From Candidatus Bathyarchaeota archaeon (GTDB taxonomy: Archaea > Thermoproteota > Bathyarchaeia > Bathyarchaeales > DTEX01), in assembly GCA_963714275.1 (NCBI GenBank), contig CAVQNT010000007.1:1-64000 (forward strand): a stretch of 64,000 nucleotides of DNA, given 5' to 3'. Every line of letters starts with the position of its first letter. The stretch's first letter is position 1. A model generated the notes under the pieces. The model was not told where the DNA came from, searched no databases, and saw nothing but the letters and a program-made list of their open reading frames with translations. Of the stretch, positions 42,337 to 64,000 are shown piece by piece. A program made the position numbers and the translations under genes.

Positions 42337-42532
42337 AACAATTCCTCTATCCGTTATGGATAAGTAGGCTTATTTAACCCTTTTTCTGCGAAAAGGAAAA
42401 GAATTCCTTTTTCTGGCTTTATCGAATCATTATTCTTATATATTAGGTTTGGAAAGATTCCAGAAAAGGTAGGCTGCGTAAAGACGCTGCAAGATGAAGT
42501 TTAAATCGATTAAAGAAAAAAAGAAAGGATGA

Positions 42533-42757: not shown

Positions 42758-42829
42758 ATAACTAGTCCAAATAAGAAACAAATAACCTTATTTCAATAAC
42801 AGAAATAAATAAAAAGGTTAATTGGGCAA

Positions 42830-43203: not shown

Positions 43204-43226
43204 TCAAGGATTATCAATACGACTTT

Positions 43227-44006: not shown

Positions 44007-44063
44007 CTTTCTTCGACAACCTTTTAGAACAACTAAAATAAATAAGTCTTCTCGGGAACAAAT

Positions 44064-44648
44064 TTGCCGACAACGTGGTTCGAGAAACTCGGAATCATCC
44101 GCCACTACGACAAAATGGCAAACATCTACGATTCCTTATACCGAGAAGAACAAGAACTAAAGATTAAACAAATACTAAGGCATATGGCTGTCCACGATTC
44201 GGACTTAACTTTGGATGAAGGTTGTGGTACAGGTTTCCTTTTTGAACACATCTACAAACAAGGTGCTCACCTCGTCGGGGTAGATTTATCTAAAGGGCTC
44301 TTGAGGATTGCATTAGCCCACGTTAGGCAAGCTGGAACAAGGAATGTTTCGCTGGTTCGGGCGGATGTTGACCATTTGCCCTTCAAAGAACGTGTGTTTG
44401 ACAAGGTCTTTGCGTTGACTCTTCTCCAAGACTCTTCGGACCTAGACGTGACACTAAAAGAAATAATAAGGACGACAAAAGTGGATTCGATGCTTGCGGT
44501 TACGGGGCTCAAGAAAGTTTTCACGGAAGAGCGGTTCAAACAGGCTTTAACGAAAGAAGGCTTGGAAATCAATATTTTGTTGACGCCCGAACAAGTGAAA
44601 GATTTTATCGCTGTTTGTCGGATGCACGTAGAAGCAAAGATTAAATAA
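44064..44648 (+). CDS. Class I SAM-dependent methyltransferase
   Basis: LDEGCGTG, GVDLS and ADVDHLPF..FDKV motifs. Confidence 0.88.
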   Translation: MPTTWFEKLGIIRHYDKMANIYDSLYREEQELKIKQILRHMAVHDSDLTLDEGCGTGFLFEHIYKQGAHLVGVDLSKGLLRIALAHVRQAGTRNVSLVRADVDHLPFKERVFDKVFALTLLQDSSDLDVTLKEIIRTTKVDSMLAVTGLKKVFTEERFKQALTKEGLEINILLTPEQVKDFIAVCRMHVEAKIK

Positions 44649-45325
44649 TGGCTTGGCGAAGTAGTAACTCTGGTGAAATACAGTGCCGACTCACGGAAGC
44701 CTGTCTAAAGCAGGAAAAGTCCGTTCGCAGACTCCGAAAATAGAGGCTACTCCGAAAACTAGGAAATCGCCAAAAATAAAGTATCGGAGAAATTTCGAAA
44801 AAAGAATCATGCTGCAAAGAAAACTGGGACAAAACTGGGGCGCGCGCGCGCGCTAGCAAAACCCAAAACAAGACGTCATTGCAAAATTTTTAGTTCAAAA
44901 TCAAAAATATTACTATTTAACCAACTAAAAGTATTAAAAAATACACTTTTATGAAAGATACATCACTTGAGGTTTCTTTTTCTTTGCTTTCTGGATTTTT
45001 ATCGCCAAATATAAAGGACGCTCACAAAAACTCTTCTGGTTACCACCTTCATCATTATTAGCGTCTTTCTCTTTTTGGGGCAAAAGTCTCACTATCTTGA
45101 TTTAGATACTGAGGCTATTTATATTTGTTTAATTCATGGAAAGAGAGCGAGGAATCCCGACTTCTAATAATGTTTGCCCAACCCCAAACCATTGCTCATA
45201 AGGCTTTTCTAGGGGCAGTTAATCGAGCGAGAAGTGTAGGTGACAACAAGGGCTGAGTAAGTGAAGGTATTAGAGGAATAAATTTAAGTTTCTTGTTACT
45301 ATTCAAGATTATGGGGAGTAATTAA

Positions 45326-45794
45326 TTGTTTAGGAAAAAGAAAACAAGAAGCCCATTCAAAGCCTCAATGCCTATAGATAATCCAGACATTAAATTAGTG
45401 GAAGCTCGATACAAAGGTAAACCATTTTTCTTAGCAGTGGGAGTATCTAAACAGAGAGAAGTAAAGGGTTCAGGGCAACTTAGTATGAACGAAGGAGTAA
45501 AAGGAGGTTACCAGACCCAGAAGGATTTAGATTGGGAGGTTCACTATAATATGGGTGCTCTGCCTTCAGGCTTCATGTCAGCTCAGAAGACTTAAAGGCT
45601 TAATGGCTGGAACGGTTTCTGTTGTAAGTGGAAGCACAGGCGTCTATTCTGGAAAATTTTCAGAAACAAACTCAGAAAGTCTTAGTAATATTGAAAATAA
45701 ATTTTCCAACTTTAGAGTTGAGGACATCAATAGCCTTCTTGAATATTTAGGTAGTATTAGTTTGGCAATAAAGAAGAAGAAGAAAAAAGATTAA
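45326..45794 (+). CDS. Hypothetical protein, frameshift near 45570
   Basis: Two overlapping ORFs after a GGGAG RBS; the stop codon overlaps repeat copy E. Confidence 0.45.
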
Positions 45795-45817
45795 AATTTA
45801 ATCCCCAAACCCAAACC
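45790..45817 (+). repeat. Dispersed intergenic repeat, copy E
   Basis: ATTAAATTTTAATCCCCAAACCCAAACC; inverted match to copy F. Confidence 0.85.
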
Positions 45818-45909
45818 GACCTAGTCTTATACGCTAGTGAACCAAAAAAAAATTCTTTACCACCACAACCAGGACAAATTAATGTATCAACTATTTCTGA
45901 CATTCTTTT

Positions 45910-46238
45910 CTACCATAATCTCCCTTCTTGCTCAGGAATTATCACACCACCGATTGAAGCGTTTACGTCAATACCTTGTGGAATATTCGGTCCACCCTCT
46001 CCAAAGATTACAGCAAAATCTATGATAATGGCTTTATTTGCTGAATTATGAATTGTTATGTTTTGGATTTTCGTTTCACCAGCGTATGCAGTAATTGAAA
46101 ACGTGGATGGTCTTACAGAGATTGGTTCATTAATTGTGAGTGTTCCTTGAACCTGAAAAATGTCCCATGCTCTTACACCCCAATACTGAACAATGATACA
46201 AGTAGTGCTACCAAGATTACTTTCTTATTTGTTTGCAT
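45910..46238 (-). pseudogene. Small secreted beta-rich protein, frameshifted; absent from the ORF track
   Basis: MQTNKKVILVALLVSLFSIG signal peptide, then (shifted frame) RAWDIFQVQGTLTINEPISVRPSTFSITAYAGETKIQNITIHNS. Confidence 0.55.
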
Positions 46239-46485
46239 TTTTCATTTCTCCTATTTTTTCCGTGTACTCTTTCTTCCCTTCAATTAGGGACAGGCGGTTT
46301 CACGCCTCCAACAGAGTTTACTGCTAATGCTATAAACCTTTATTATAATTGAACGTATAAGGGGTTATGAAAGATAATTAAGAAAGACAAATCTATTAAA
46401 TAATATCAGTTAAATTTTGTGTGTGAGTAGTATGTAGTGTGTAGTGTAGAGAACACATATAACAGAACATAACGTAACGGCATTA

Positions 46486-46512
46486 GGTTTGGGTTTGGGA
46501 TTAAAATTTAAT
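46486..46512 (-). repeat. Dispersed intergenic repeat, copy F (inverted)
   Basis: Minus strand reads ATTAAATTTTAATCCCAAACCCAAACC, differing from E only by one C in a run. Confidence 0.85.
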
Positions 46513-46622
46513 GCACACATAATTTAGGCAAATTAGGCAATTTAGGTGATTTTTTAGGAAGAATCTTAGAATAAACTAAAATTTATATACTGAATGATAT
46601 AATAATATTAAATTGAGGATAA

Positions 46623-47438
46623 TTGCCAAAAGCAGAGAAAAATCTCAAACAAATCTATCATCTGATGGTCGAAAAGTTGAGGCAGTTGAGTAAAGGCGAT
46701 GCTTTTGATAAAACGATGGAAGAAAATAAGAGTTTTAACTACTTAGAAAGGAAGGATAGTTATTTCTTTGAGAAGATGACGCAAGCAGTTTTTGAGAGTG
46801 GTTTGCGTGCTTGGGCATGGGAACCTCACACAAGAGGCATAAAAAAAGCGTTTTGTTATTTCGATGTAAGAAAGGTCGCTGGTTTTGATGATAAGGATGT
46901 AGATAGAATTCTTGTTAGTAATAACATGATTCGTAGGAAACCAAAGATTGAGGCAGTCGTCTATAATGCGGGAAAGATAGTTGAGATAAGCGAGAAGCAT
47001 AATGGTTTTTGGAAATGGATAGACAGCAAAGTGATTAGAAAAGGAGATTTGATCTTTCCAAAGCCTGATTTAATTGAAGAGATCCAGAAAACGTTCAAAT
47101 GGCTGACAGGCATAAACGCTTACTATTTCCTAAAGCTTTGCGGTGTTGATGTTGTTAAGCCAGACTTGAATGTTCGCAGGATATTGTTTAGGCTTGGATT
47201 GATAGAAAGTGACAAAAACAATAAGAAAACGTGGAATCAGATACAAGAGGTTGGAAGAAAGATTTCAAAAGCAACTGGAGAGAGGATAATAAACATTGAT
47301 TATGTCATCTATCTCTATGGTAGTGGTGGAGATCAGTTTTTTGATCACCCAATCTGCACTAAAAAGCCGAAGTGCGAAGAGTGCCCTTTAACAAGTTTTT
47401 GTTATTGGTATAGGAAGGGAAGATTGAAAGTAGGCTAG
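46623..47438 (+). CDS. 3-methyladenine DNA glycosylase (Tag-like) with C-terminal EndoIII-type 4Fe-4S motif
   Basis: FFEKMTQAVFESGL, AF..FD...VA, IRRKPKIEAVVYNA, KPDLNVRR and CTKKPKCEECPLTSFC motifs. Confidence 0.8.
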   Translation: MPKAEKNLKQIYHLMVEKLRQLSKGDAFDKTMEENKSFNYLERKDSYFFEKMTQAVFESGLRAWAWEPHTRGIKKAFCYFDVRKVAGFDDKDVDRILVSNNMIRRKPKIEAVVYNAGKIVEISEKHNGFWKWIDSKVIRKGDLIFPKPDLIEEIQKTFKWLTGINAYYFLKLCGVDVVKPDLNVRRILFRLGLIESDKNNKKTWNQIQEVGRKISKATGERIINIDYVIYLYGSGGDQFFDHPICTKKPKCEECPLTSFCYWYRKGRLKVG

Positions 47439-47500
47439 CCAGTCAAGTAATATAACTCGAATTTAAATCCATTTTATAAAAAATTAGTAGCGAAGCCTTT

Positions 47501-49363
47501 CTAAATTCGTGCTACCACGGTTATTATAGGGGTCTGAGCAGCTTTTTTCAGGCTGGATATAAGCTTGCTAAACACAATGCAGCGATTAATACTGAAAGCA
47601 ATATTGTGATTGCCACGATTGCGTTCTGGGATATAACCAGTTCAGGAATTAAGAATATTAAAACAAATGCCAACCCAATCGGTAGCCCAAACAGCGCACC
47701 AGTGAAGACAAGCAGGAACGTCTGAAATAATAGAATCTTTAATATGGTTCCGGGTTTTGTTCCTAACGCACGCATGATGCCCAAGTCTCTCTGCTGACCT
47801 GACACTGAAAGCATAAGGAAACCCATAAGCGAAGTGACAGCGCTTATGAAAGACAAAAGCGAAAGAGAAAGAAGCAGAGACCAAATTTGGCTTATGAAGG
47901 TTATCTGTCTATTTAAAGACTGATCTAAATCAACCATAATCAAGCCTGAGTTAGAAATTACAGCTTCTATTCCTTGAAGTATGCTTGAACGGTTTGAATG
48001 TTCAACCTGCACTAGAAGAATATTATAACCTGAGTGATGAACGATGGAGGACAATCCCTCATAGGGCATGTAGACTACCATCCCGTTATTAAGAGGGTCC
48101 AAACAAACCCCAACAGTATGAAACTCGTGATCGAAGGCTTTGAAGTTTTTGTTGAAAAGGGTCTTCAAAAAATGTTGCAGTGAAAGGGGTCTCCCAATAA
48201 CACGTTGTTCAAGTCTTTATCTTGGATTTTCTCACCGAGAAGCAACCAATCATTTACAAGATCCCCAACATGAACACCCATGATAATAGCGTCACCTTGT
48301 CTTTGGTCTCCAATTACTATGTATTGGCCGGGATTATTAGGATCTGGGGCAATATATTGAGCCTCTTTAACAGAGGTCTCTAAAATCAACCGGGGCGGCT
48401 TCTGATGACTCCGCTGATTTCTTGAATCGCAGAGATAACAGAATCCGGAATCGCATAACTATCATTAAGGTAGTTAAAAGACTCAGATTGGCTTGGCTGA
48501 AGGAACCTATCAAGTAATTGTTCATAATGTTCAGCCATTTCAGTCTTAGTCACAAGAACCACATCTGTACCAACCGCCCTCTGAACGTAGCTAGCGTGGT
48601 TTCTTCAGCAACTATTCCGCCGACGACGATTACAGTCATCAAAGCAATGACTACACCAAGACAGGTAATTGATTGAATAGTCATAGACCATCTTCTACGT
48701 AGAGTCCTAGAAGCAATGCGTACAGTAAGACTCTTGCCAAACAAGAAAGGCAATTTAAAAGTTGACTGTTGAGCAGCCATCACATCTGAAACTTGAGACA
48801 ACGCCTCAGCAGGTTTAATACGAGCTACCCGTCCAGTCAGCCGCAAGCCTAGAATAAAAGAAAATCCAGCGAACATAATAAAAATCAGCAAAATCATCTG
48901 TACATTGAGAGGACCAACTAAGAGATGAAAACCTAAAAGGTTCATCACGCCTGTCGAGACAAAACTTAAGGCAATCCCAACAAAAGTCCCGATCAGGCAG
49001 CCTGCAAGGACGAGAATCAAAAACTCCGATGCGAAATGCTGAAAAACAGCATCAGTTAGGCATCCGACGGCTTTCATGATGCCAATGTCACGAGTCCGAT
49101 TCTGAAGTAGCCACAGACATTAGGAAATAAACAACAAGAACCCCAGTAACACAGTCAAGTATGACCACAAGCAGGATGAACCTGGAAAAAATTACTGAAA
49201 ATCCAACTGTTAACCCACTCGTTGAAAAACCTGCAACCTCAACGCCGAGGTTTTCACCGAAAAGAACAAGTGAAATAGTCACCGAAACGCAGACAGCAAG
49301 GCTAACGATTGTTAATGTTGTCTGAAACTTTCTTCTCGCCAACTCTTTAAGTGGAAACCCCAA
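47501..49363 (-). CDS. ABC transporter permease (FtsX/MacB-like), several frameshifts
   Basis: Two R(D)xGIMKA(V/L)G-type FtsX repeats and TM helices across four ORF pieces. Confidence 0.8.
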
Positions 49364-49372
49364 CCATCCCGC

Positions 49373-50052
49373 CTACTCCTCGGAAACAATTTTTCCGTCT
49401 GACATGACAAGCGTCCGGTCCGCTAACTTCAGGACCCTTTCATCATGCGTGACAACAACCACTGTCTTCTTCTCTTTCAATCCCCTCAAAATGTCAATAA
49501 CCTTCAAGCCTGTGTCCAAATCAAGGTTTCCCGTAGGCTCATCCGCTAACAAAATAAGCGGATCATTAGCAAGCGCCCGAGCGAAAGCTGCCCGTTGCTG
49601 TTCGCCTCCGCTGAGTGGGACGGAAAATGGTCAACTCTACCAGTTAAGCCCACAAGTTTCAGCAGTTCATCTGATTTTTGCTCAATCTGGCTGTCGTCCC
49701 ACCCGGTGAAATGCATGGGAAACGCGAGATTCTCCTTTGCAGTAAGGGTCGAAATTAGGTTGTACGACTGAAAAACGTATCCGATGTTGGTGCACCGGAA
49801 AGTCGCAAGAAAATACTCATCATACTTAACCAGATCATGCCCGAGGACAGAGATCTCGCCTGATGTTAGTTTGTCTAAACCGCCAATAATGTTTAGAAGA
49901 GTCGTTTTTCCCGCCCCAGATGGACCTTGGACAACAATGAATTCGCGAGTCAAAATGGTCAGGTCGACGTCTTTGAGCGCCTCAACTACGGTTCCGCCAA
50001 TATTGTACTCTTTCCGCATGGATAAGGCAACAACAACCTTTTCATTTTCCAT
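49373..50052 (-). CDS. ABC transporter ATP-binding protein (LolD-like), frameshift near 49620
   Basis: GPSGAGKTT, GYVFQSYNL, LSGGEQQR, LADEPTGNLD and VVTHD motifs. Confidence 0.9.
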
Positions 50053-50151
50053 AGTCAGTAACGCTTCGAAGCGATTTAACTAGTTATCTAGCGCGCGCGT
50101 AGATCTCTTTGCAATGACTTCTATTAATTCGAATTCGTCTGAGTTAGTGAG

Positions 50152-50814
50152 TTACCTAAGATTAACAAGAGAAATGCAACGACTCAATAAAAATATATTC
50201 TTCCCCGTTACAAAGTATTCCACAGTCATTCGTTCTCTCACGGTATCAACTACTCCCATTTTCTTGAAACGACTCATCTGCCAACTTAAAAGTCTGAGAA
50301 GATATGCCAAGTTCAGAAGTTAACGATTTATGCGAAATTGATTGGTTCTTGGATAAAACTAAAAGAATCCTTCCCAGCGTTTTGTGTCTAAGGAGAGAAA
50401 TCAATCTCATTTCAGACTCTTTAAACCTTCCTGACTGGAAAAATCTCTTGTATCTATTGTCATCATAGACCGAAATCAATTCAGATTTTGTGAGAAGTTT
50501 AAGATGATATTGCACAACGCCGACAGAAAAATCTCAGTTTTCCGCATATGTCCCTGAAGCAGGTCCCAGGATTATCTTCAATGAAGGTGTAGATTTCTAA
50601 CCTCGTTGACTGGTTAAGTAATGACTGATTTTGATAGAAACTTGTGCGGGCTATATCCTGTGTGAAAAAAGTGTATTGGCTGAATACTCTCTGTGAGTGC
50701 AATGGGTGTAGGAAGCGAATGTTTCGAGTCGCTCTGAGAGCAAACCATTTCAGTGAGAAATAGAAATAGGACTAGGGTGCCAAGGGACACTGACAAAATT
50801 TGTCTTCGCTTCAA
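50152..50814 (-). CDS. Double winged-helix regulator with N-terminal hydrophobic segment, frameshifted
   Basis: TRLEIYTFIEDNPG, VQYHLKLL, RYKRFF and ELGISSQT pieces. Confidence 0.7.
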
Positions 50815-50870
50815 ATCACTTCTGCCCCTATCGAAAAATCTAATTAGATTTCCCAGTATTTATCATCTTT

Positions 50871-50903
50871 TGTAAACGATTGTACTAGTGTAAACGATTG
50901 TAC
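50871..50903. promoter_or_regulatory. 15-bp direct repeat, candidate operator between divergent genes
   Basis: TGTAAACGATTGTAC at 50871-50885 and 50889-50903, separated by TAG. Confidence 0.5.
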
Positions 50904-50965
50904 CATAAAATTTATTCTTCTTCCCCATTAACATGATTTAAAGGTATATTTAACAAGGGTTAAAT

Positions 50966-51895
50966 ATGGAAAGTCATTTCCGTCGTCCTATTTTTGAAGG
51001 ATGGAAAAAAGGGAAACTGCTTGTTCCCTTCATCGTTGTTGCCCTTTCTTGGTCCTTATCGTTAATCGTACGGTTTGTTTTTGGTCTTGATGGGATAGGG
51101 CTTTCTGTCGGCGAAGGAATCGATGAGATTGCCAAGGTATGTTTGGCGATTGGGTTAATCTGGCTGTTTCTAAGAAACGTTCCGCCCTCTCCTTACAAAA
51201 AGGGATTCTCCAAGAGGTCCGCCTTAATTGATCTGTCAATTGCAGGAATAGACTGTGCGATCACGGTTCTCTATGGTTTTTTCTTTTATTCTTCTCTTGA
51301 TTATCATTATTATAGTCTTGGTTTTTTCCTCCTTGGAATGGAATATGCGATCATATTATTGTTCACAATCAGACATTACGGAAAGAAAGAGTTAAAGCCC
51401 TTTTTGAAGGACTTAGGACTGCGCACGCCATCAGTAAGAATCATAGTGTGCTGGGTTGCAACAATTGTCATCTTTTTTTCCCCTTATCTACTTAAGTGCA
51501 GGTGCAAACTTTCAGGCGTTTCTTAATGATTATCATAACACTCTCTTCTGGATGCCGAATATTCTGTATATGATCTTTGCCTGGCTTGGTGCTGAAGAGT
51601 TTTTTTCAGAGTCTATTTGCAGACAAGACTTGAGAAGATAATGCCAGTTGGATTGGCAATCATAATTCAATCATTTCTATTCAGTATAATCCATATTCCT
51701 GGCAACGCAGCAGTTTTGGGTTGGGGATGGCGTGTTGTTCCCCATTTGGCGAACACGTTACTCCTAACTAATGGCTTGATTGGAGGATACTTGTGGCATA
51801 GAACGAAGAGTCTGCCAATTCTAATCCTTTACCATTGGGCAATATATCCTCTCATGCCACTCATCTTCTTTCCATCCTATTATTTGCCTAGTTAA
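50966..51895 (+). CDS. CPBP/CAAX (Abi-family) intramembrane metalloprotease, frameshifted
   Basis: AEEFFFR..LQ.RL, FSIIH and ILYH motifs with multiple TM helices. Confidence 0.8.
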
Positions 51896-51968
51896 CATAA
51901 TTATTTGAATCCTTGACATTTATTGATGACAATAGTAGCTAGATAGTGAGCTGGCTTTTCAATTTAAC

Positions 51969-52265
51969 TCATAAAACTTCTCTAAATTCTAACCAGGATT
52001 TTATTACTCTAACTGGGAATTCTCCATTTAAAACATACATGGTTCCTTCTTTTTTTATAAAATCACTTTCTTTCAATAGGTTTAGGACAGCGTAGTATTG
52101 ATTTAGTGAGCAGTTGAGTCTGGAGAAGGTCTGTTCCCTAACCTCTTTACTTGTTTCTAAGCCTCCATCTTTAATCTCATTTGCCAACGTCCTTCCTATG
52201 CGTATGTAGTCTGAGGACTTTAACGCCATTTCTATAATTTTCGGTAATTCCCTCATATTCACCAC
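51969..52265 (-). CDS. Small hypothetical protein, wHTH-like
   Basis: QYYAVLNLLKESDFIKKEG..YVL wing pattern; GAGGTG RBS. Confidence 0.55.
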   Translation of the reverse strand: MVNMRELPKIIEMALKSSDYIRIGRTLANEIKDGGLETSKEVREQTFSRLNCSLNQYYAVLNLLKESDFIKKEGTMYVLNGEFPVRVIKSWLEFREVL

Positions 52266-52558
52266 CTCAATTTTGGTTATAGCAAAAATGCATCATCTAT
52301 ACCCTAATTTTCCATTTTTCATTTTTGACTTAGGAACAAAATGAGGACTATTCCGTCAAAGAAATTATATCAAACGACCCTTTAGATTCCTGAATAACAG
52401 CATTTGAGTTTATACCAAAATAGTCGCTTTTGTCGTTTTTGGTTCTACCTTTTAGCCTCCGTATAGTAGTTTACGATTTTAATGGTTGTATAGGACAGTA
52501 AAAGAGTCTAAAAGAGCGGTTGAGTAAATGATTAATTCATTTGTCATGTGGTCACCAG

Positions 52559-52869
52559 TTACTTTTGTCTCTTAGGGTGGGGAATTTCTGGTTCAGGCTT
52601 TGCTTCTTTTTCGCTTTCTGCTTGTGAACTGCTCATTTGCTCTGCCACTGGTGCTACTTCACCGAAATAGTCTTCCTTAGCCTCAACTATATCAGAAGGC
52701 ATCTCTTCTTTAGAAAGTTTAACATTTTCTGCTTCACCTTCCGCCTCTAATCTCTTTGCCTTTCTTTGTTCTGCCTGTTTTTCATTTTTTCCTGATATTC
52801 TTGCAATTCCTTAGGTGGACGTTGTTCAGTCTGTCTCTGTTTCAAAACTGACTTTCCTAACTTACCCAT
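52559..52869 (-). CDS. About 100-aa charged, low-complexity protein, one frameshift; absent from the ORF track
   Basis: GGAGGTG RBS; MGKLGKSVLKQRQTEQRPPKELQEYQEK then QAEQRKAKRLEAEGEAE...EAKPEPEIPHPKRQK. Confidence 0.5.
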
Positions 52870-52938
52870 AACATTCACCTCCTGCAACCTTATTCCCACT
52901 ACTCTGTTTCACATACATCACCTCAAAAGATTGGTTAG

Positions 52939-53214
52939 TTACTGTAGGGCTTGGCTCAAAACTCTTCTGGTTGCTATGGCAACGTCTTCTGCTGTAATTG
53001 TCTCCCGTTCCTTAAAGCTTGGAGCATGAGGAGAACTTTGAGCAATGAGAATAGACTCTTTTGCCACCTTCATGGATGCTTCGTTTAAAGTCCTAATCAT
53101 TTCCTCAACACCTTCTCTGCTTACTCTCTTCGCTCCTGCTTTAGTTAAAAGTCTTCGGACTGCCAAAAATGGGAAACCTTCTCTCCTATGCTTGTCTACT
53201 CTTCTAACTTCCAA
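52939..53214 (-). CDS. Variant archaeal histone encoded in the mobile element
   Basis: FPFLAVRRLLTKAGAKRVS...RETITAEDV aligns with the host histone at 42121. Confidence 0.85.
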   Translation of the reverse strand: MEVRRVDKHRREGFPFLAVRRLLTKAGAKRVSREGVEEMIRTLNEASMKVAKESILIAQSSPHAPSFKERETITAEDVAIATRRVLSQALQ

Positions 53215-54060
53215 TCAAATCCCTCGCTTCAATCTCACTAATTCTCGCACCGAAATTGTCAAACACTCTTTTTACATGAGTGATATGTTCGCCTTGTCCT
53301 TTGACACGAACAACCCCGTTCTTCAATAGCAATTGTATTGCTCTTTCAAAATCAAATCCATATTTCTTTATTACATTCCTAAAATTGTAACTGCTACTCA
53401 ACTCCTCCAACGAAATCCACTTGAACTCTGGAAGCGCTTTTAAAAATGCTTTCAAAGAGTAATACTCGTACCAAACCCTCAGTTCTTTGAGCGTCTTTTT
53501 GACTCGTCCTCTTGTCTTGCTGTCCGTCTCAAGTCGTAATGAGTGACACGTTTATTGAACGCCTCATGTTTACTTATCTGCACAACAGGAAAATCAATCT
53601 TCTTGAGTTTGTCGAATGTAAACCATAAACTCCCAACACTAATGCCTAATGCTTCGCTTAATTCAGTAAAAGCGCTATACCCATGTTCCTCAAGGTATAA
53701 AACAACCCGAGCCACAAAAGGATTTCTGGCGACATCCTTAATCACATGACTGTTAGAAAATGGAATTATGTCCTTTAGTTCTTTCGCAGGTTTAATGTCT
53801 TGAACTCGCAACTTAACGTCTTCAACTATTACTTTCTCTTCTGCCTTAGTTTCTTCTATCATTGCACCTAAATTATCTTCAGGAAGGTCAAAATCCGCCA
53901 AGTCATCTTGAGTTTCATTAGGCATTAATATTTGGTTCTCCTGTCCTTCTGCAACATCTACTACCTTATTCGTTGAAGGCTTATCGTTAATATTCTCCTT
54001 AACTTGCTTTGTTCTACTCTGCAAACCGAACTCAAACTTCAGACCTTTCACCTTTCCCAC
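53204..54060 (-). CDS. Winged-helix DNA-binding protein (~285 aa), probably one gene frameshifted near 53490
   Basis: Acidic N-terminus, HTH FTELSEALGISVGSL; the second ORF continues ELRVWYEYYSLKAF with another wHTH-like segment. Confidence 0.6.
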
Positions 54061-54945
54061 TCATTTACTAAAACTATAAAATATTATATTGATTGTAAGA
54101 TTGTCCTTACTTATTGTTAGTGCCTTCATCTGCTCTCAGTCCTCAAATCCACCTACCTATATTATATTATTAGAGTGTGCGAAATTACGATAGTTTTGGT
54201 ATATACCAATTATAAATTAATGGTGAGGAAGTATATAAATTTTAGGTAGCATTTGGTAGCATTGGCAACATAGTGATATTGAAAGCATAAGCCATCTTAA
54301 GGTTAAAATCAACACGTCTTAATCTACCATATTATTAATATTATTAAAACTACCACCACTGTTTCTCCGAGACAACAAAAATAGTGTAGCTGTTCCTCAG
54401 ACGGCATCAAAACTGTTTTACTTGCTCTAACTGCTATTTGCTTTAAATGCCAAAGTGCTATCTGTAAAATTAAGAATATAAATTTAATATATGAAAAAAA
54501 ACGCCACATTAAGGATTTTGTGAGATTATGTCTATAATGATTATATATTTATGCAAGAGACAGCAAGACATACCCTTAGTCAAAACCTGACTAAATTAAC
54601 TAAAAAAAATAAATGGAAATTTCGAGTAAAACGTAACAAACATTAATAATCTTCACACAAATGGTCTTTTAATTTTCTCTTTCTTATAGCAGAACTGATT
54701 TATTTTTTTCATTTATTTATTTTTTTAGTTAATTTATTTTTTTTATTTGAGATTTGAAAGAGGTTTATTATTAAAAATTTATGCAGAATACCTTAGTCAG
54801 ATCTTAAATAAATTCAATAAAAAAAATAAAAAAAATAAAGGGAGATTTTAGGATTTAAGATTAATTTAATCACTTAGATCTGTATGATTTTCCCTTTCTA
54901 AAGTGCTTAACAGAGTTCGTAGACAATCCAGATTTCCTTTAAAGT

Positions 54946-56842
54946 CTATGAAAAGGGCGTTTTGTTCTCCTCGCCTTGTAACAGAAAGCCAAAGTGTTGT
55001 AAGCTTTGATTGAGTCTTCTTTGCCCGCTTGGAGTTTCTGGAATATTTTGTAGAACGCTAGAGAAGTAAGTTATAGGCTTTAGATGTTCGTTAAGTCCAT
55101 TGTAAGTCGTTGTTAATTCTGAAAGAGGCATGATATTTTTGGCATCATTGGATTATTGTTGGTGAAAGCACATGCTCCTAGAACAATGGCTTTCCACTTT
55201 CCGCTAGGCAAATTCTTATACTGATTCAAAAGCCACAATTCATGAGGAACACTGCTAATAGTGGTTAACATTTGCGTAATGGAGTTTATGATTAAATTGC
55301 AGATATGTGTAACATCTTCCTCCGCATCCTGAAGAATTTTGTTGATGTCATAGTCTCCTAAGTAAACTTCTTTCAGATTGTCTAATATAGCATGCTTCAA
55401 TGCTTTTCCTCTTATGTGCCTGAAAGCACCCTTGAAACTTAAACAATATTCTCTGATGTCAGGGAAAGAGGCAGTAGCAGAGTGGAGTCGATGTAAGATT
55501 TGATTACATCGGAAAAAGTTTCAGGAGGAATGTCCTTATCTAACCACGTTTGCACTTGTCTATTAGGAAAGATTGTACTTTGTACTCTAGTATTTACAAC
55601 TGATATTATATGGGTGTAGACAAGCTCATTTTTGTCTATAGTTTCATCGTTCAATGGCTCTATGTCTGTGCCTTGACTGTCTTTTTCTTTCTTAGCAATG
55701 TCTAGTTTTAGTAAGATTAGAAGTAGTCCTAATCTTGAAGATACGGGTCCTGATACAATTGCATGCCGTGATATATATTCAGCAAAGTATTGAGCAAGTT
55801 GGTTACGGTCAACAGCGACAGGATTATCTGCATCAGAAATTTCTGTCTGAGGAAGGTTAAGCAAGCAAGTTACAGAAGCAGTTGTCCTTGCTACCACTGG
55901 TCCTTTGCCCTTCCCTGCTCTTTGAACTCCTTTCTCTTTTATCTCTAATAGATTTCTTATAGCTTCTAGTATATAGTCTTGTACACTGTCTAACATCGAG
56001 AGTTCCGTATTGTCCGTCAAAATTCCTATATTTTCAGCATCAGCAGTCGCAAACCCGACTAATCCTGCTCTTGAAGCATCACTGAACCACACTCCACCGC
56101 TAATTCTTGCTATTTTCATCGCAAAAGTAGTTTTTCCCAATTTTGTAGGAGAAAGCAAGTCTGTATGGTCTTGATACTTCATTATTATCTCAGGAGTTTT
56201 TTCGTCCTCATAGGGATTGTCGTGAAAATTTATCACTTGAGATTCTAAGGCATAAATCATGTCAGCATTTTTGTACCACCCTTCGTAACAAAAGTCATGT
56301 CTGATTCTTTCAAAGTCCCAGCTCTGTATATTGTTGATTTCTTGGGGAGTCAATGGTTCAACAATTTTGAAGAGAAAAGGTGTGTTTAAGTGTTTATTAA
56401 GTATGTTTGTCCATATTTCATAAGGTTCAAGTGAGCGAGACTGAAACTTTCCATTTTCATCTGGTTCCTTTACCGTTGTTACTATGTTGCGTTCCTTAGT
56501 TATCTCAAAGATTACTTTTGATTCAGGTTCGGGAGTAGGAAATGCCAATGCATTTTCGGGTCCAAGAAAAAGTTCGTCTCGTGTAAGTGGCATTATTCTA
56601 TGCCAGTCACCAGTTAGCCTATACGTAGACTTCGTTAATATATAGTTTAAGGGAGTTCCAACGTCACATCTATATTTGTAAATGCTGTACTGATAGACAT
56701 AATTGTTAGAGTTCCAAGGTTTGTGGTTGTAGTATAGAGTGAAGTCTCTCAAGTTTACTTTTTTCTTTGCTGTTATACCAGAATAGTCAGGAGGCAGGTC
56801 TTGCAGACCAGGTCGTTCAGGAGGCAAACTAAGTCCTGACAC
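54946..56842 (-). CDS. Divergent MCM-like AAA+ helicase, frameshifts near 55450 and 55130
   Basis: SPTKLGKTT (Walker A), ASRAGLVG, SMLDS (Walker B position), RAGKG..ARTTASVTCLLN and VSSRLGL (Arg finger) in MCM order. GTG at 56842 follows AGGAGG. Confidence 0.7.
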
Positions 56843-57698
56843 TTTTTTCAGCCTCCTTTTGAGAGAGTACGTCAGGTTTTTGTCTACTATCCACAACATG
56901 CTTGAGCAGGGTTTTTGATAGATAATGTGTACATTCTTGTTTCTTTGGATGAGTTTCTTTAAATCCAGAAAATCCCTATATTTGCCTTTTAGTACTAATG
57001 CAAAGAATATTGGTTCGTCTAGGAAATTTTCTATCTCTTTATCCAATGTTATCACTCTCTGATTTATTTAATTCTGAAATCTCACAGGGACACCTACTTG
57101 CGTAGGCGTTAACGTGGCGTTAAGCCACAATTTTCAGATTATTAATTTTTTGGTTTCTGACTCTTCACCTTTTAAAGGTGGATTTTAAATCCCTCTACAT
57201 ATGGGGCATTCAGAGGTCTTTAATCACAATTTAAATTTGTGACCGTGATTTCTATTTCCTTATTTATATAATAACAGTGATCCTATATTTAAATTTTATT
57301 TTTTTTTACTAAAAGTTGTGAATATAACAAAAAATTTATATATCTTAACATCATATAAAACTCAGCTAGGATGTGGTAATCTCTTGAGACAAAGACCAAA
57401 AAGGAAGCGTAAGACAAGGCTTGAAAAACTAGCAGAAAAATACCCAGCCAAGAAATGGGGAAACTTGGAGAAGTTCGTTCATCCTGAGGAATAGAAGCGC
57501 ACGCGCTAATTCAAATTGGAACCCGCATAAAATGGAGAAGTATGTGCTATCGCAGAATTTTTAGATGAGAATTTGAAAGGAATCAATCTCAATGGATTGA
57601 AGTTAGACAGCAATGTCCTCGAGTTCAGTTTTAGAAGGCATTTCAAAGAGAAAGAAGATGATTCTCTTAATCTGGAATGATAAATCCTAAATCTTCAA

Positions 57699-58974
57699 TC
57701 AATCGTTCTGCCTTATTTGCTTCTTTTTTGTAGACTTTGGTAGTTTGAACTTTCCTCTTTCTTCAGGTGTCATTTCTCTTGTGCCTTCAAGTATCTTCTT
57801 TAGACCTTCTTCAGTATGTAACCTCACGAATCTTTCGAAGTCTGCTCTTAAATCTGCATAATTCTTCTTTTGCTCTTCTAGGTCCGTCTTAAGGGTTGTA
57901 ATCTGTTCTGTGACTTCAGAGGGAATAACTGCCTTTTCAATTACTTTCTCAATTAACGGAGTTAGGTAGTTTTCCACATTAGCATATATCTGCCTCAAAT
58001 TATCTTTCTGAACCTGTCCTTGAAAATAAGTTTCCTCCATCCCTTCCAATGTATGTCCCATCATCCAGTAGACAATGTTTTTGTTGGCGTTATGTCCTTG
58101 CAATTGACTATCAAAATACTTTCTAAAACAGTGTACTCTAACCCTGCCATGTTCCCCGTCTAATCTGAGGCTTGTCTTTTTCGCTAAATCTTTCATCATA
58201 CTATTCCATTGCTGTTCAGATAACTTATTCCCTTCTTGACCTGTAAAGATATATTGCTCTCTTAACCCATCATCTTTTACTCTAGCTCTCAGATCAGCTT
58301 TTAACAACTCCACGCCATATTTGCCGAGAAACGTAAAACGCCATCCTATCTCCCTGCCCTCTGTCTTTTCTGGAAGGTAGTCAATAGCCATAGGAACTTT
58401 TAAGGCATCTAACTTCCCTAAATCAAACTCCTTTAAATCCTTCACCTTCAGCTTTTGAACGTCACCTATCCTCATGCCTGTTTGTGCTAACCAAACAATT
58501 CTTCAGCTTCTCTTTCATATCACCTGCGTCAACTATCGCTTTATAATCACTTTCAGATAACTCGACATCATGAAATTTCCTTTGTTTCGACTTTCTATAC
58601 TTTGTATCTTCTTTGCAAAGTGGGTATCCCCAATAGCTATAAAATGACTTGACTATCAGTCTTGAAGTTGCAATAGTTTTGGGTGCAAGTCTTTTCTCCT
58701 CTTCTATTTGCTGAAACACACGCTGAAATAACCTTTCTGATTCTTTCTTTCTTTGAGCAAAATCCATTAATAATTCGCCGTCAATCTGCTTATACTCAGA
58801 CATTCTATCTTCAATCAATTGTCTTGGAGCCTTACCAGCATATTTACAAAACTGTTTTATCTCTCTGAGATACAATGGTCTGCTTTCATTAGACTTCCCT
58901 AGTAGCCATTGAATAACTGCATCTTGGTCTGCTTTTTCTGTAAATGCCTCTTTTACCTTTTCTTCATGACTCAT
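57699..58974 (-). CDS. Tyrosine recombinase/integrase, frameshift near 58500
   Basis: TGMRIGD, EKT, HCFRKYF, MMGH and ETY catalytic residues; C-terminal coiled coil. Confidence 0.9.
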
Positions 58975-59232
58975 TTACTTCTTTTCCTCAAAAATATAAT
59001 CTTAGAGGTCTTATTTAAATTTTTTTATTATAAAAGATGGGAAAATTACTATTTTCATTCACCTGAAAGCCAAAAATCTAGATAAGTCCATGACGGTTGC
59101 GGTATGTCACACAAATCAGATAGCCTCCCGTAAACAGCGTTTATTGTTCAAAATTGAAACTCGGTTGTTGAACAAATCATACTAAGTAGAAACACTTGAA
59201 TCCACATATAAAAAGAAAAAAGTGTTGGGACT

Positions 59233-60432
59233 CTAAGCGGGAATTGTCACCCACTTGCTCTTTTCTGACGATTCCTCGATTGCGGACAGTATTTCTTGGC
59301 ATTTCAGCCCGTCGTAGAAGGTTGCACCCAGCGGAGCCACTGACTTGTCGTTCACTATGCAATCTACCAAGTGGTGGATTTCGTGCGCGAAAGTATGTTC
59401 CCAGCCGATAATGTGCCCCTGCGGCCACCAGTGCTCCATGAACGGGTGAACGCTTTCGGTGACCAGAATGTTGCGGAAGCCCATTCTGTCATCCTGGTCC
59501 TTCTTTGAGTAAACTTCCAGTTCGTTCAGCCGTTCAAGGTTGAAGCTGATTGACCCTTCTGTCCCGTGAACCTCAACCCTCTGATAGTTCTTTCTTCCTG
59601 CACAGAAGCGGGAACTTTCAAGGCTACCGACCGCGTTGTTCCTGAACTTGACCATGGCGATGAACATGTCGTCCACGTCAACCTTGCCCTTCTTTTCTGG
59701 ATTATCCTGCAACTGGCGTTCCTTGATGAAGGTCTCAGTTAATCCGCAAATTGAGGCGAAGTCTCCCACGAGAAACCTAGACAAGTCCACGATGTGTGCT
59801 CCTAGGTCGCCTAATGCTCCTGATCCAGCGACGCTTTTCCTCAGCCTCCAAACCAAAGGAAACGAGGGATCCATAATCCACTCCTGAAGGTAAACGGCTC
59901 TGAACTGAAGGACTTTGCCGATGTAGCCTTCGTCAATGAGGTTCCTCGCCAGCCTCAACGCGGGAACAAAACGGTAATTAAAAGCTGTCATGTGCTTTAC
60001 GCCCGCCTTCTCAGCAGCCTCATACATCGCCCTCGCTTCCCTGAGGGTTCCAGCAAGTGGCTTCTCGCAAATCACGTTCTTTCCAGCTTCGACTGCCGCT
60101 ATGCAGGGTTCAGAATGCAAGTTGTTTGGCAAACAGTTGTCGACAAGCTGAATCCTCTTGTCTTTGACGACATCCTTCCAGTTAGTGTAGTAGGTTTCAA
60201 ACCCATATCTTTTTGCCAGCTTCACTAAAGCCTCCTCCGTTCTTCCGCAGAGAGCTATCAAGCGCGGTCTCGCAGGAGGCGGATAGAAGAACACTGGCAT
60301 CTTTTTGTAACCGTTTGTATGAGCTTTGCCCATGAAGGCGTAGCCTAACACGCCGACGCTGATGTCTTTAACTTCTTTAGGTTCCTTCGAAACCTTGCCC
60401 ATCGTCACAAATCCGACTTCTTTCTTCGACAC
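59233..60432 (-). CDS. Gfo/Idh/MocA family oxidoreductase
   Basis: GYAFMGKAH, CEKPLA, GALGDLGAH and GHIIGWEHTF motifs. Confidence 0.92.
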   Translation of the reverse strand: MSKKEVGFVTMGKVSKEPKEVKDISVGVLGYAFMGKAHTNGYKKMPVFFYPPPARPRLIALCGRTEEALVKLAKRYGFETYYTNWKDVVKDKRIQLVDNCLPNNLHSEPCIAAVEAGKNVICEKPLAGTLREARAMYEAAEKAGVKHMTAFNYRFVPALRLARNLIDEGYIGKVLQFRAVYLQEWIMDPSFPLVWRLRKSVAGSGALGDLGAHIVDLSRFLVGDFASICGLTETFIKERQLQDNPEKKGKVDVDDMFIAMVKFRNNAVGSLESSRFCAGRKNYQRVEVHGTEGSISFNLERLNELEVYSKKDQDDRMGFRNILVTESVHPFMEHWWPQGHIIGWEHTFAHEIHHLVDCIVNDKSVAPLGATFYDGLKCQEILSAIEESSEKSKWVTIPA

Positions 60433-60435
60433 TTT

Positions 60436-61406
60436 TCACCACCACACCTGCTTAAGGGGAGCCTTGATTATTAATGACTTTAGGAAAGCTATGCATTTTT
60501 CGCACCCGTCTTCGCGGCTCATCACGGGGTCTTCGTGCTCGTAACTCAGGACAAAATCATAGTGGACCTCAAGCAGCGCGGTTATTACCCTTTTCCATTC
60601 AACATCGCCCCAGCCTACGACCCTGAACCTGAACCCTCTGCCCTGCCTCATCCACCCGCCCGTTGGTATAACGCCTGACGTTGCGACGTTCTCCTTCACG
60701 ATCTCTGCATCCTTGGCATGCGCATGATAGATTCTATCCCCGAACTTCTTGATGAAAACAACAGGGTCAATTCCCTGCCAGACGAAGTGACTCGGGTCGA
60801 AGTTAACCCCGAACTCTTTTCTACCATCAACCGCCTTTATCGCCTGCTCCGTCGTTTCAACGTTGTACGCCTGTTCCTGCGGGTGAACCTCGTGGGCAAA
60901 CTTAATCCCATGCGCAGCAAACACGTCGAAAATGGGGTTCCAACGCTCAGCGAACATCTTGAAACCTTCCTCGTAAATCTTCTCGTAGGCGGGTGGAAAA
61001 ATGTACCATGCTCCCCAATACGGTGCTCCGATGAACCCGTTCACGACGCTAACATCAAGCGCAGCTGCAGTTCAGCAGTTTTCTTCATGCGTTCCGTGCC
61101 ATATTTTACTTTTTCTTCCGGTGTGCCTTTGAAAAAGTCGTCTGTTGAAGCGCCGTGAGGCCCGAGCACAAGTTGCCCTTCAAGGTGGTTGCTGATTCCA
61201 GAAATTGAAAGCCCATATTTTTCGACTGTTTTTTTAAGTTTCGTGGCACCGCCGCTTAGGACGTTGTCGAGGTCGAGGTGAGTGCTTCCCTTCCATGCTG
61301 CGAGTTCAACGCTTTCGTAGCCGAGCTTTGAAACATATTCTAACACTTTTTCCAGTTTAAGTTCATTGTACAGAACGGTGAAGATACCTATCTTCAAACG
61401 AGTCAA
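60436..61406 (-). CDS. Sugar phosphate isomerase/epimerase (IolE/xylose-isomerase-like TIM barrel), frameshift near 61060
   Basis: HEVHP, NFDPSH, HAHAKD and SYEHED motifs. Confidence 0.88.
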
Positions 61407-61532
61407 TCTCCTATATGTTTTTTGTGAAGTCTAGTATCACCATATTGTCTTAAATAATTTACACTTACCAATGAATTACAGAAAAATTGTTATATGAAGA
61501 AATAAGCTCTGTTTGGTCAAAAAACGGTCTTG

Positions 61533-61724
61533 TCACTCAACTTTCTTGGCAACAGAATATTTGCGGATCTTCAGGTCGTTAATTATTTCATTGCTCTCGA
61601 AAAGTCTCCTCAAAGAGCTGAAAACGGCTTTTGGTTTTTTGTCCAATTTCCCAGCAATCTCGACGAGAGTAAGAGGCCCAGATTCGCTTAGCAGCTTAAG
61701 AACCTGTTCGTCCAGCTTGTTCAA
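61533..61724 (-). CDS. Small winged-helix DNA-binding protein
   Basis: VLKLLSESGPLTLVEIAGKL..VFSSLRRL pattern. Confidence 0.65.
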   Translation of the reverse strand: MNKLDEQVLKLLSESGPLTLVEIAGKLDKKPKAVFSSLRRLFESNEIINDLKIRKYSVAKKVE

Positions 61725-62005
61725 CCTCGAAGCACCTCAACATTTTCCAATATTTTCCAGCCTTCAGTATTTATCATCTTCGCTGAAAACCAAAAATCCT
61801 CTTATTGAATAAACTTTTAAAGACATTTTATTTTCTTGGTCATGTTCACAAAAAATCATGTATTATTGACCTTCATAATGGATAATACTAACCAAAATTG
61901 TGAATAGGTAGAACCGTTGATACGCAATTAAGCTTATAAAACGGATTTCGCAAAGTATCTGAAGACATAATACATTTAAGCGCGGAACGTATTGAAGGCG
62001 GTATC

Positions 62006-64000
62006 ATGTATGAGCTGTGGCTTGTCGCGCCATTATCTGCTCTAGTCTCAATCGTAGTTGGACTCTACTTCTACAATTATGTTAACAAACAGGACCCAGG
62101 AACCGAAAAAATGCAGGAAATCGCCTCTGCAATTAGGGAAGGGGCAAGAACATTTCTAAACAGGGAATACAAAACATTGGCAGTGTTCGTGTCCATAGTC
62201 GCTGTTTTCATGTTCATTTTTCTTCCTTCACCCATATGGTCAAATCCTGACCCCTTAAAAAATATAGCAATAGTTACAGCGTATGTTTTCGGATCAGTCT
62301 GTTCAGCAACAGCTGGCTTCCTCGGAATGAACATATCAACAAAAGCGAACACAAGGGCAGCCAGCGCAGCGAGAGAAGGACTGAACAAAGCCTTCACAAT
62401 AGGTTTCCGCGGTGGAGCAGTCATGGGAATGGCAGTCGTAGGTCTCGGCTTGCTCGGAGTAAGCGTCGTGTATTGGGCAACAGGCGACCCCGAAGTCATA
62501 TTGGGATTCAGCTTCGGCGCAAGTTCCCTTGCCCTTTTCGCTAAGGCTGGCGGTGGCATATACACAAAGACTGCTGACATAAGCGCAGACTTGGTTGGAA
62601 AGGTGGAGCTGAACATTCCTGAGGACGACCCGAGAAACCCAGCTGTAATTGCTGACAACGTTGGCGACAATGTGGGCGATGTTGCAGGCATGGGAGCAGA
62701 CCTTTTCGACTCATACGTGGCAAGTATCGTCGCAGTCATGATTCTTGGACAAGCCTTGAACCTGTTGCCGGGCTCCCAAGGAATATACCTTCAAATCCCC
62801 CTAGTGTTCGCTGGCCAAGGCATCCTGTCAGCTGATTGTAGGAGCTTTGACAGTAAGGGTAGGAAGCGGGGGCAACCCAGGCAAAGCTTTGAACACAGGA
62901 ACATACGTTACATGCATAATTTTTGTGGGCTTAACATACGTGACATCGGTCTTCATCCAGTATAACCTCAGAATTTGGGGAGCCTCAACAGTCGGTCTAA
63001 TTGCGGGAGTCATCATAGGCGTAACCTCGGACTACTTTACCTCAGAGGACAAGGCGCCAGTCCAAAAAACAGCGGAAGCAGCACAAACAGGAGCAGCCAT
63101 AAACATCATAACAGGATTCTCCTACGGTCTACGCAGCGTTCTACCACCACTAGTGGGAATTGCAGGCGCAGCAGTCGTAGCATACAGACTATGTGAGCCA
63201 TTAGGCACCCAATATGCACTCTACGGTATATCTATGGCAGCATTGGGAATGCTGTCAATCGTAGGCTTAGTGGTTTCAAACGACGCCTATGGTCCCATAG
63301 TTGACAACTCCAAGGGAATAGCAGAGCAGGGAGGACTCGGTGAAGAAGTCATAAACGTAACAGACGAGCTGGACGCAGCAGGAAACACTGCAAAGGCAAT
63401 AACGAAAGGATTCGCTATAGGTGCAGCGGGATTAACCGTGATTGCCCTTTTCAGCTGCATTCCAAGAAATAATCAGAAACGAAACAGGCATAACAGTCAG
63501 CTTCGACCTGATGAACCCACTCGTTCTGTTAGGCGCCTTTATAGGAACTGCCATACCCGCTGTTTTTTCAGCGATGCTTATGCTTGGAGTTGGAAGAAAC
63601 GCTTTCAGAATGATTGAGGAAATCAGAAGGCAATTTAGGGAAATTCCGGGACTCAGAGAAGGAAAAGAAGGAGTAAAACCTGAGTATAGCCGGTGCGTTG
63701 ACATCGCAACCAAAGGCGCATTACAAGAGCTTCTACCAGCAAGCGTCATGGCCATCGCTGCAACATTGATTGTTGGGTTTGTCGGCGGAGTCGAAGCGTT
63801 AGGTGGATACCTCGCTGGCAGCATTTTCTCAGGACTACTATTCGCGTTGCTTATGGCTAACGCTGGTGGCTTATGGGACAACGCCAAGAAACTGATAGAG
63901 TCCGGAGCGTATGGCGGAAAAGGGTCAGAAGCTCACAAAGCAGCAGTCATAGGCGACACTGTTGGCGACCCATTCAAGGATACTGCTGGTCCATCGCTTA
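62006..64000 (+). CDS. hppA: Membrane-bound ion-translocating pyrophosphatase, probably K+-independent; two frameshifts, runs off the window
   Basis: GGIYTKTADISADLVGKVE, EDDPRN, DNVGDNVGD and GDTVGDPFKD motifs. GNTAKA has Lys at the K+-dependence determinant. Confidence 0.92.

Follow-up and report, generated by a model that had tools for sequence, protein, structure and literature searches.

A stretch of 64,000 nucleotides (nt) on contig CAVQNT010000007.1 (GCA_963714275.1) of a Candidatus Bathyarchaeota archaeon, referred to here as the window, contains an open reading frame (ORF) at 52939-53214 that, judging from its sequence and its structural model, encodes a real nucleosomal-type histone-fold protein. 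Both its identity as a histone and its location within a mobile element are very probable. The best overall explanation, to which we assign a probability of about 0.5, is that this protein is an element-coupled variant histone that forms a special nucleoprotein state. The variant and the host histone with which it was compared are the following:

52939-53214, minus strand: element-borne histone variant, 91 amino acids, TTG start codon, Pfam PF00808.
42121-42336, minus strand: canonical host histone, the comparator, outside the element, 71 amino acids, PF00808 at 45.9 bits.

The PF00808 family (archaeal histone/CBF-NFY) matches residues 14-81 of the variant with 23.9 bits (cut-off 21.4, expectation value (E) 5e-05), and has only two matches in the 2.64-Mb genome (91% complete): the variant and the host histone, the latter of which is kept at 61-97% identity across Bathyarchaeia genomes. 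Automatic annotation would probably leave the variant gene unnamed. BLASTP aligns the two proteins with 27 identities over 75 positions (36%), 7 gap positions and an E of 3e-12. An initial annotation of this DNA had listed three departures of the variant from the host histone, and the alignments confirm all of them: a short, arginine-rich N-terminal extension of 10 residues (F14 of the variant pairs with L4 of the host), a proline-rich 7-residue insertion (P62-K68) between the end of helix alpha2 and the arginine of the loop 2 (L2) motif, and the replacement of R53-K54-T55 in that motif of the host by R70-E71-T72. The isoelectric point is 10.5 for the variant and 9.5 for the host histone. Because all three features recur in five full-length homologues and in eight metagenome loci, they are neither due to chance nor a sequencing artefact of the window copy.

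An AlphaFold2 model of the variant, built from 17 sequences, has a mean predicted local distance difference test score (pLDDT) of 80.9 and places helices at residues 16-25, 33-60 and 75-90, with the N-terminus modelled at low confidence. The layout of the protein is:

Residues 1-13: N-terminal extension.
Residues 16-25: helix alpha1.
Residues 33-60: helix alpha2.
Residues 61-74: enlarged L2.
Residues 75-90: helix alpha3.

In the model, alpha2 reaches the canonical length of 28 residues and alpha3, with 16, is complete; this predicts a nucleosomal-type protein rather than one of the alpha3-truncated histones of Schwab et al. The top Foldseek matches are HPhA, HMfB and HMfA, with template modelling (TM) scores (target) of 0.88-0.90 and a root-mean-square deviation of ~1 A over 70-71 columns; the top rows, which include an Asgard histone, span E 2.8e-3 to 7.3e-3 and TM (target) 0.87-0.90, and eukaryotic H4 follows. 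In keeping with the initial annotation, a histone fold is predicted by AlphaFold2 and Foldseek alike.

Residue equivalences were taken from an hmmsearch alignment against PDB sequences and are given in HMfB numbering:

Variant R21: HMfB R10.
Variant G27: HMfB G16.
Variant R30: HMfB R19.
Variant I57: HMfB L46.
Variant S60: HMfB H49 (HMMER register).
Variant P62-K68: insertion relative to HMfB.
Variant R70: HMfB R52.
Variant E71: HMfB K53.
Variant T72: HMfB T54.
Variant D77: HMfB D59.
Variant I80: HMfB L62.

The roles of these residues are those given by Henneman et al. 2018 (PMC6136690), Stevens et al. 2020 (PMC7776873) and Laursen and Luger 2026 (PMC13260811). According to these papers, minor-groove anchoring of the dimer falls to R10 and R19, residues 53 and 54 add to DNA binding, an arginine-aspartate (R-D) clamp is formed by the L2 arginine and the aspartate seven residues downstream, L46, H49, D59 and L62 make up the dimer-dimer interface, and G16 allows stacking. 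The variant retains the DNA anchors R10, R19 and T54 and the R52-D59 clamp, together with G16 and three of the four interface residues (positions 46, 59 and 62, of which 46 and 62 are hydrophobic). It is altered at position 49, where the histidine is lost in the register of the profile and the structure, at position 53 (K to E) and in the length of the loop. Among 17 sequences R70 is nearly invariant and D77 invariant, the K53 equivalent is glutamate throughout the close family, and the column of HMfB position 49 holds S, N, G or Y. By these alignments, the three conserved changes, in loop length and at positions 49 and 53, fall together at the meeting point of the DNA contacts and the dimer-dimer contacts.

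A word-indexed protein search yielded nine candidates, eight of them true: the variant itself, five full-length relatives (89-92 amino acids, 65-79% identity) and two fragments. Run exhaustively, a profile search returned 63 proteins at E <= 0.001, of which eight reached <= 1e-10 and one <= 1e-30; one of the eight, a eukaryote-like repeat protein matched on its N-terminal half only, was set aside. In six further proteins (P0010-P0015), alpha2 is followed by 'SP' and L2 is lengthened by 7-19 residues. A tree of 78 histones was computed on 76 columns after columns filled in <30% of rows had been dropped. In it the 12 proteins with an insertion group together as one clade (support 99/94, stem 0.59), separate from the 22 host-type histones of Bathyarchaeia. 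Columns of the insertion are expected to lie under the fill threshold, and so not to drive this clade; with so few columns, the deeper forks of the tree are unreliable. Recent capture of the host histone as the origin of the variant was rejected on the tree together with the 36% identity. Ten protein clusters that were looked up have 1-3 members each, all from metagenome sources and none with an NCBI source, and one is named 'histone H3/H4'. The variant was not found in 60 relatives, in which the best hits are canonical histones at 26.8-45.5 bits compared with 174.2 for the window copy, and was also unseen in 400 further genomes of the phylum (E <= 1e-12). Pattern searches gave 63 matches in genome contigs, and 180 and 255 in 2.9 million viral contigs, none of which was confirmed as a relative of the variant. 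The family is small, known from metagenomes only, and carried on integrative mobile elements of Bathyarchaeia.

At the family level the variant gene is under purifying selection. The ratio of nonsynonymous to synonymous substitution rates (dN/dS) is 0.16-0.35 in ten pairwise comparisons, in which counts are small and the pairs are not independent, and the pooled ratio of nonsynonymous to synonymous polymorphism (pN/pS), likewise from small counts, comes to 0.35 for the insertion and 0.71 for the N-terminal extension. An antisense ORF at 53045-53329 (plus strand) lies across the junction between the histone gene and the gene upstream of it, termed F1, and is open in eight loci. It was rejected as a real gene, the histone frame being the one with the Pfam match and a dN/dS well below 1, and its frame most likely stays open only because the opposite strand carries conserved coding sequence.

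The variant is carried by an insertion of ~14.1 kb (about 44919-59054). Synteny with three same-genus genomes breaks at window 44838-44839, and a contig of genome G002 (same genus, 88% identical) provides the empty site, in that it joins window 44841 to 59048; this contig runs from the host histone to the right flank, with matches to 42149-44841, 59048-59084 and 59165-62513. The ends of the element and its integrase are:

44909-44918, plus strand: left 10-bp direct repeat ATTACTATTT, putative att core.
59045-59054, plus strand: right 10-bp direct repeat ATTACTATTT, 70 nt beyond the integrase start.
57699-58974, minus strand: tyrosine recombinase (integrase), PF00589 at 41.6 bits, divided by a frameshift into 58462-58974 and 57699-58475.

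The repeat ATTACTATTT has three matches in the window where 0.32 are expected, a number reached in none of 100 shuffles, and the G002 site holds a single copy related to it. The G+C content is 0.376 in the element, 0.445 and 0.473 in its flanks, and 0.434 in the genome. The integrase is intact in metagenome locus L019 (429 amino acids, PF00589 at 43.3 bits), to whose protein the window pieces are 61% and 52% identical. The empty site, direct repeats, integrase and low G+C content bear out the mobile-element label that the initial annotation had attached to the histone. No tRNA gene serves as the insertion site, the sole tRNA of the window being at 18944-19043, and an Rfam scan of 44500-59400 gave no match at E up to 0.1. 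Among sequencing runs, no RNA run was listed as containing this DNA; one DNA run matches 0.06 of sampled words and provides seven contig records over 44500-59500, including four of 151 nt and one of 217 nt (depth 2-2.6); these five short records differ from the window at 0-2 positions, and the other two match only 25-41 nt. No excision joints or circular joints were present in these low-depth short contigs of a single run. Circular contigs were also sought among the eight metagenome loci, none of which has a terminal overlap.

Several other observations concern the site and its surroundings. An alternating GC run of 14 nt at the left junction (44840-44853) is missing from the G002 site. Next to the right repeat, the short intergenic sequence at 59104-59184 is a dispersed repeat with no Rfam match: parts of it (25-50 nt, 88-100% identical) are found at 13 further genomic positions, and it matches many G002 contigs. 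At the same site G002 (locus L034, G002:C88, reverse-complement 2790-4058) has a different stretch of 1.27 kb with a 189-amino-acid protein, and the chromosomal site may be a hot spot for insertions. A second integrase on the same contig (G000:C7:148157-149267), matched in pieces, is 49-59% identical to that of the element, and no second histone module accompanies it. A long low-G+C stretch (0.31-0.40) at window 18000-39000, which starts at a tRNA-Arg(TCG) of 100 nt (18944-19043) that probably holds an intron, may represent one or more further islands.

The base composition of the element bears on one alternative, by which the element would supply a histone of its own to spare the host's single histone from titration by AT-rich element DNA. 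Plasmid-borne H-NS homologues of bacteria, such as Sfh of R27, are the analogue of such a stealth or dosage function; like the variant, these bacterial proteins are mobile paralogues of a host chromatin protein, but their fold is unrelated and they belong to a different domain of life, so that the likeness is an analogy only. The low G+C content of the element relative to the genome and the retention of the DNA-anchoring residues fit this alternative, as does the presence of histones on Borgs (PMC12660748) and halobacterial plasmids (PMC11390915). It is nonetheless very unlikely: a supplement should resemble the host histone, whereas the variant, with its low identity to that protein, sits on a long separate branch and is changed at functional sites, and 14 kb of DNA would bind few dimers at ~30 bp per dimer (PMC11390915).

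The variant is coupled to the gene upstream, within which its start codon lies:

53204-54060, minus strand: F1, double winged-helix protein, divided here by a frameshift into 53479-54060 and 53204-53455.

In nine of nine loci the TTG of the histone gene comes directly after an in-frame TGA and 11 nt before the stop codon of F1, with the Shine-Dalgarno-like sequence GAGGG 6 nt upstream. Over the 30 nt before the TTG, 4 of 240 positions differ across the eight other loci. Synonymous divergence (dS) between the window copy and the five loci compared is 0.35-0.88, and ranges from 0.16 to 1.08 over all ten pairs. Because the junction of Shine-Dalgarno-like sequence and TTG is near-invariant despite this divergence, the comparison favours TTG as the start codon, so that the N-terminal extension would be translated, and likewise co-expression with F1. 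A second TTG within the frame, at L17, was rejected as the true start, since loci L019, L021 and L022 lack a start codon at that place and the upstream junction is near-invariant. The overlap of the histone with an upstream winged helix-turn-helix gene, and the coupled expression deduced from it, were part of the initial annotation; the first is confirmed and the second supported. The overlap is 11 nt, and the ORF concerned (53204-53455) proves to be the C-terminal part of the split 271-amino-acid F1.

F1 is intact in the metagenome loci as a single ORF of 271-274 amino acids. Its Pfam match, to HTH_24, is weak (E 0.0046); the AlphaFold2 model (mean pLDDT 59.9, with one of five models above a mean pLDDT of 43) consists of a disordered acidic region (1-84), a winged helix (95-167), a long helix (171-195) and a second winged-helix-like unit (201-241), and its Foldseek matches are weak and of MarR/ArsR type (best E 8.6e-3). 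The F1 family is as small as that of the histone, with 9 clusters compared with about 10, and two F1 relatives lie on contigs equal in size (1371 and 3298) to those of the distant histones P0012 and P0011, which suggests, but does not prove, that the linkage extends to the wider clade. The strict linkage to F1, the conserved overlapping start and the equal smallness of the two families would suit an adaptor outside chromatin, in which the histone fold would mediate protein-protein contacts, working with F1 in the sequence-specific regulation of element genes, and the enlarged L2 would be a binding surface for proteins. Long L2 inserts are typical of non-nucleosomal histone-fold proteins, and this alternative rests partly on comparison with NF-Y and TAF proteins. 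Conservation of the minor-groove arginines and of the R-D clamp favours direct DNA binding of the histone type instead; an adaptor is very improbable.

If the variant is an element-coupled histone that forms a special nucleoprotein state, it would be made together with F1 from the backbone operon of the element and would dimerise through its histone fold, either with its own kind or perhaps with the host's one histone. The dimers would bind DNA by the usual L1L2 and alpha1 contacts (L1 being loop 1), with the extension of tetramers and hypernucleosomes altered. The result would be a special nucleoprotein state on the AT-rich DNA of the element, for its regulation, replication or partition, and the variant would not act as a general packaging histone. 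This inferred mechanism is tentative, its chances being somewhat below even.

Heterodimerisation with the host histone had been put forward in the initial annotation, the interpretation of which is, as a whole, partly supported. Models of the variant with the host histone reach interaction prediction scores from aligned errors (ipSAE) of 0.74, 0.79 and 0.74, compared with 0.00 for the best of three controls; the runs share at least 92% of contacts, the partner pLDDT is at least 84, and the contacts are those of the usual handshake, including both L1-L2 pairings, with residues 59-70 outside the interface. Of 80 solved complexes, 58 pass the mark applied to ipSAE, as do 2 of 110 mismatched pairs; with the alignments used here these counts apply only roughly. 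Because histone dimers are abundant among solved structures, such a pass shows likeness and not the binding of this particular pair, and the model is compatible with heterodimerisation, as far as that proposal goes.

The same model bears on a capstone or anti-silencing function, in which the variant would join the host histone or its polymers, end or loosen hypernucleosomes, and keep element genes or host targets accessible. Besides the scores of the heterodimer and the usual handshake with the insertion outside it, such a function would agree with the residue at position 49, which is not histidine in the profile register, with an insertion that probably lies beside the surface of the four-helix bundle, and with the presence of only one canonical host histone, to which a second paralogue would add to give mixed chromatin. 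It is unlikely all the same, as the heterodimer pass may reflect only likeness to solved histone dimers, residue 49 (S, N, G or Y) is neither acidic nor hydrophobic as in the capstone marker (PMC7776873), the equivalents of L46, D59, L62 and G16 are retained, there is little evidence that archaea use histones for xenogeneic silencing (PMC11894787), and the tight linkage to F1 would be left unexplained.

A number of results weigh against an element-coupled histone of the kind proposed. The NCBIfam model archaea_histone scores 41.9 bits on the variant, under its cut-off of 50, and Foldseek with the variant model returned nothing at E <= 0.001, the best value being 2.8e-3. The L2 of the model is 14 residues long, and residues 61-70 have a mean pLDDT of 64, a moderate confidence. 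BLASTP, in a different register from the profile, pairs H63 of the 'SSPH' motif with H50 of the host, so that the histidine of the tetramer interface may, on this alignment, be displaced rather than lost. One homologue (P0002, from locus L015) has M in place of R70, by which the R-D clamp is broken. Lastly, three backbone genes are frameshifted in the window, those of the integrase, F1 and F2 (a small protein encoded downstream of the histone), and the module may be inactive in this genome.

The frameshifts raise the alternative of a relic, by which the element is decaying and its histone gene is no longer used here; the split integrase, F1 and F2, together with several split cargo genes, are what such decay would leave. 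Yet the histone ORF is intact and its family is under purifying selection, and host genes are split too: the thermosome C-terminus, a TIM-barrel gene and the V-PPase, the last in three pieces. With the ABC transporter of the element, also split, these are noted at window 40416-42005, 47548-50052, 60436-61406 and 62006-63999. The split of the TIM-barrel gene is a 1-nt deletion at 61071 relative to G002. The splits are either indel errors of the assembly or widespread pseudogenes, and since host genes share them, assembly indels are at least as likely as decay. That the histone is a mere relic is extremely improbable.

Other genes and regions of the element are:

52559-52899, minus strand: F2, small, charged, mostly acidic protein, divided by a frameshift in an A-run into 52747-52899 and 52559-52702.
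51969-52265, minus strand: F3, conserved 98-amino-acid protein, the last of the conserved module, 79-83% identical in six of eight loci.
46623-47438, plus strand: F4, DNA-glycosylase-like protein (methyladenine glycosylase and EndoIII Fe-S motif), common to four of eight metagenome loci.
54061-54945, no strand: AT-rich intergenic region of 885 bp with direct and inverted A/T-tract repeats, between the block of the 538-amino-acid gene and F1.
55439-57055, minus strand: 538-amino-acid protein with a GKT P-loop-like motif, candidate replication ATPase.

F2, which has 102-113 amino acids in other loci, where it also lies downstream of the histone, has no family above cut-off in Pfam and PHROGs scans of proteins, and F3 has no Pfam family match. 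A TATA-like stretch is located just upstream of F1, and the intergenic region at 54061-54945 is a candidate origin and promoter region. The 538-amino-acid neighbour had been labelled MCM in the initial annotation, a label that gained no support from hidden Markov models: the protein has no hit in Pfam, PHROGs, NCBIfam or PDB sequences. Its nearest clusters in a language-model protein atlas belong to MCM/AAA families (score 0.87), and an MCM-like identity is only a lead.

Eight metagenome loci encode the variant, and gene sharing among them was assessed by tblastn. The F1-histone pair is found in all eight, F3 in six, F4 in four, and the integrase in two (L019 and L020, near-copies of each other). 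A ParB-like gene is directly upstream of F1 in L016, L017 and L018, which are three of the five loci that reach far enough; in L019 and L020 an AAA+/winged-helix protein takes its place. Other neighbours are restriction-modification, C5 methylase, helicase, TIR, SIR2-like and TGT-like genes, and no housekeeping genes were seen around the metagenome loci. The contexts of homologues, comprising only genes of mobile-element or defence type, agree with the initial assignment of the histone to a mobile element. The cargo of L016-L020 and L015 includes a type IIG restriction-modification enzyme, a C5 methylase and large helicase, a SIR2-HEAT protein and GHKL ATPase, TIR-domain proteins and a TGT-like gene. 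The cargo of the window element includes an ABC transporter (47548-50052; FtsX-type permease and ATPase) with a paralogue 62-85% identical on contig C5, a CPBP/Rce1-like membrane protease (50966-51895) and a winged-helix regulator (50246-50702).

Canonical HMfA/HMfB and HPhA share with the variant the fold, the 28-residue alpha2, the full alpha3 and residues R10, G16, R19, R52, T54 and D59. The variant differs from them in its sequence (32-36% identical), its proline-rich L2 insertion, S instead of H49, E instead of K53 and its 10-residue extension, as well as in its location on a mobile element and its coupling to a winged-helix gene. The capstone paralogues of Methanobacteriales (PMC7776873) are likewise minor paralogues that coexist with a canonical histone and have a changed residue 49, by which the growth of oligomers could be limited; these paralogues, however, reside on the chromosome, descend vertically and have the usual length, and their residue 49 is acidic or hydrophobic, whereas the variant has S, N, G or Y there, an L2 insertion and a mobile location. 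Histones of Borgs, halobacterial plasmids and Caudoviricetes (PMC12660748, PMC11390915, PMC13681535) also place the histone fold on a mobile or extrachromosomal element. Borgs (PMC12660748) are huge linear elements of Methanoperedens, whereas the variant belongs to a 14-kb integrase element of Bathyarchaeia, and in face-to-face histones (PMC11390915) alpha3 is cut to 3-4 residues and alpha2 lacks 4-5, where the variant has 16 and 28 residues. Tailed histones (Heimdallarchaeota HA and Bathyarchaeota B23; PMC6136690) resemble the variant in having a basic extension before alpha1, which in tailed archaeal histones often accompanies weakened dimer-dimer residues; by description, their tails are H4-like and lysine-rich, in contrast to the arginine-rich extension of ~10-12 residues of the variant. 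Histones on archaeal mobile elements were thus already known, and what is new is the L2-insertion clade on a Bathyarchaeia integrative element. No description of this clade or of histones on Bathyarchaeia integrative elements was found in the literature, an unremarked listing in a survey being possible, and the Bathyarchaeia virome paper (PMC10541130) contains, by a search index, no occurrence of the word 'histone'.

The family could also be a weapon of mobile elements against histone chromatin, made together with a targeting winged-helix protein. It would co-assemble with the host histone and, by means of its enlarged L2 and altered dimer-dimer face, stop the growth of hypernucleosomes locally on element DNA. 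This is distinctly unlikely; if true, the family would act as a histone poison found in nature and would parallel, in archaea, the 'stealth' and anti-silencing chromatin proteins encoded by bacterial plasmids. Archaeal histone variants have so far been treated as chromosomal paralogues, the cases on mobile elements being those of Borgs, halobacterial plasmids and some tailed viruses. The L2-insertion histones, so far known from metagenomes only, add a distinct clade to the catalogue of prokaryotic histone-fold proteins. As the protein has 91 amino acids, the host only one other histone and the partner gene is defined, the variant is a compact and testable case for the question of whether archaeal histone chromatin can be reprogrammed by a mobile element.

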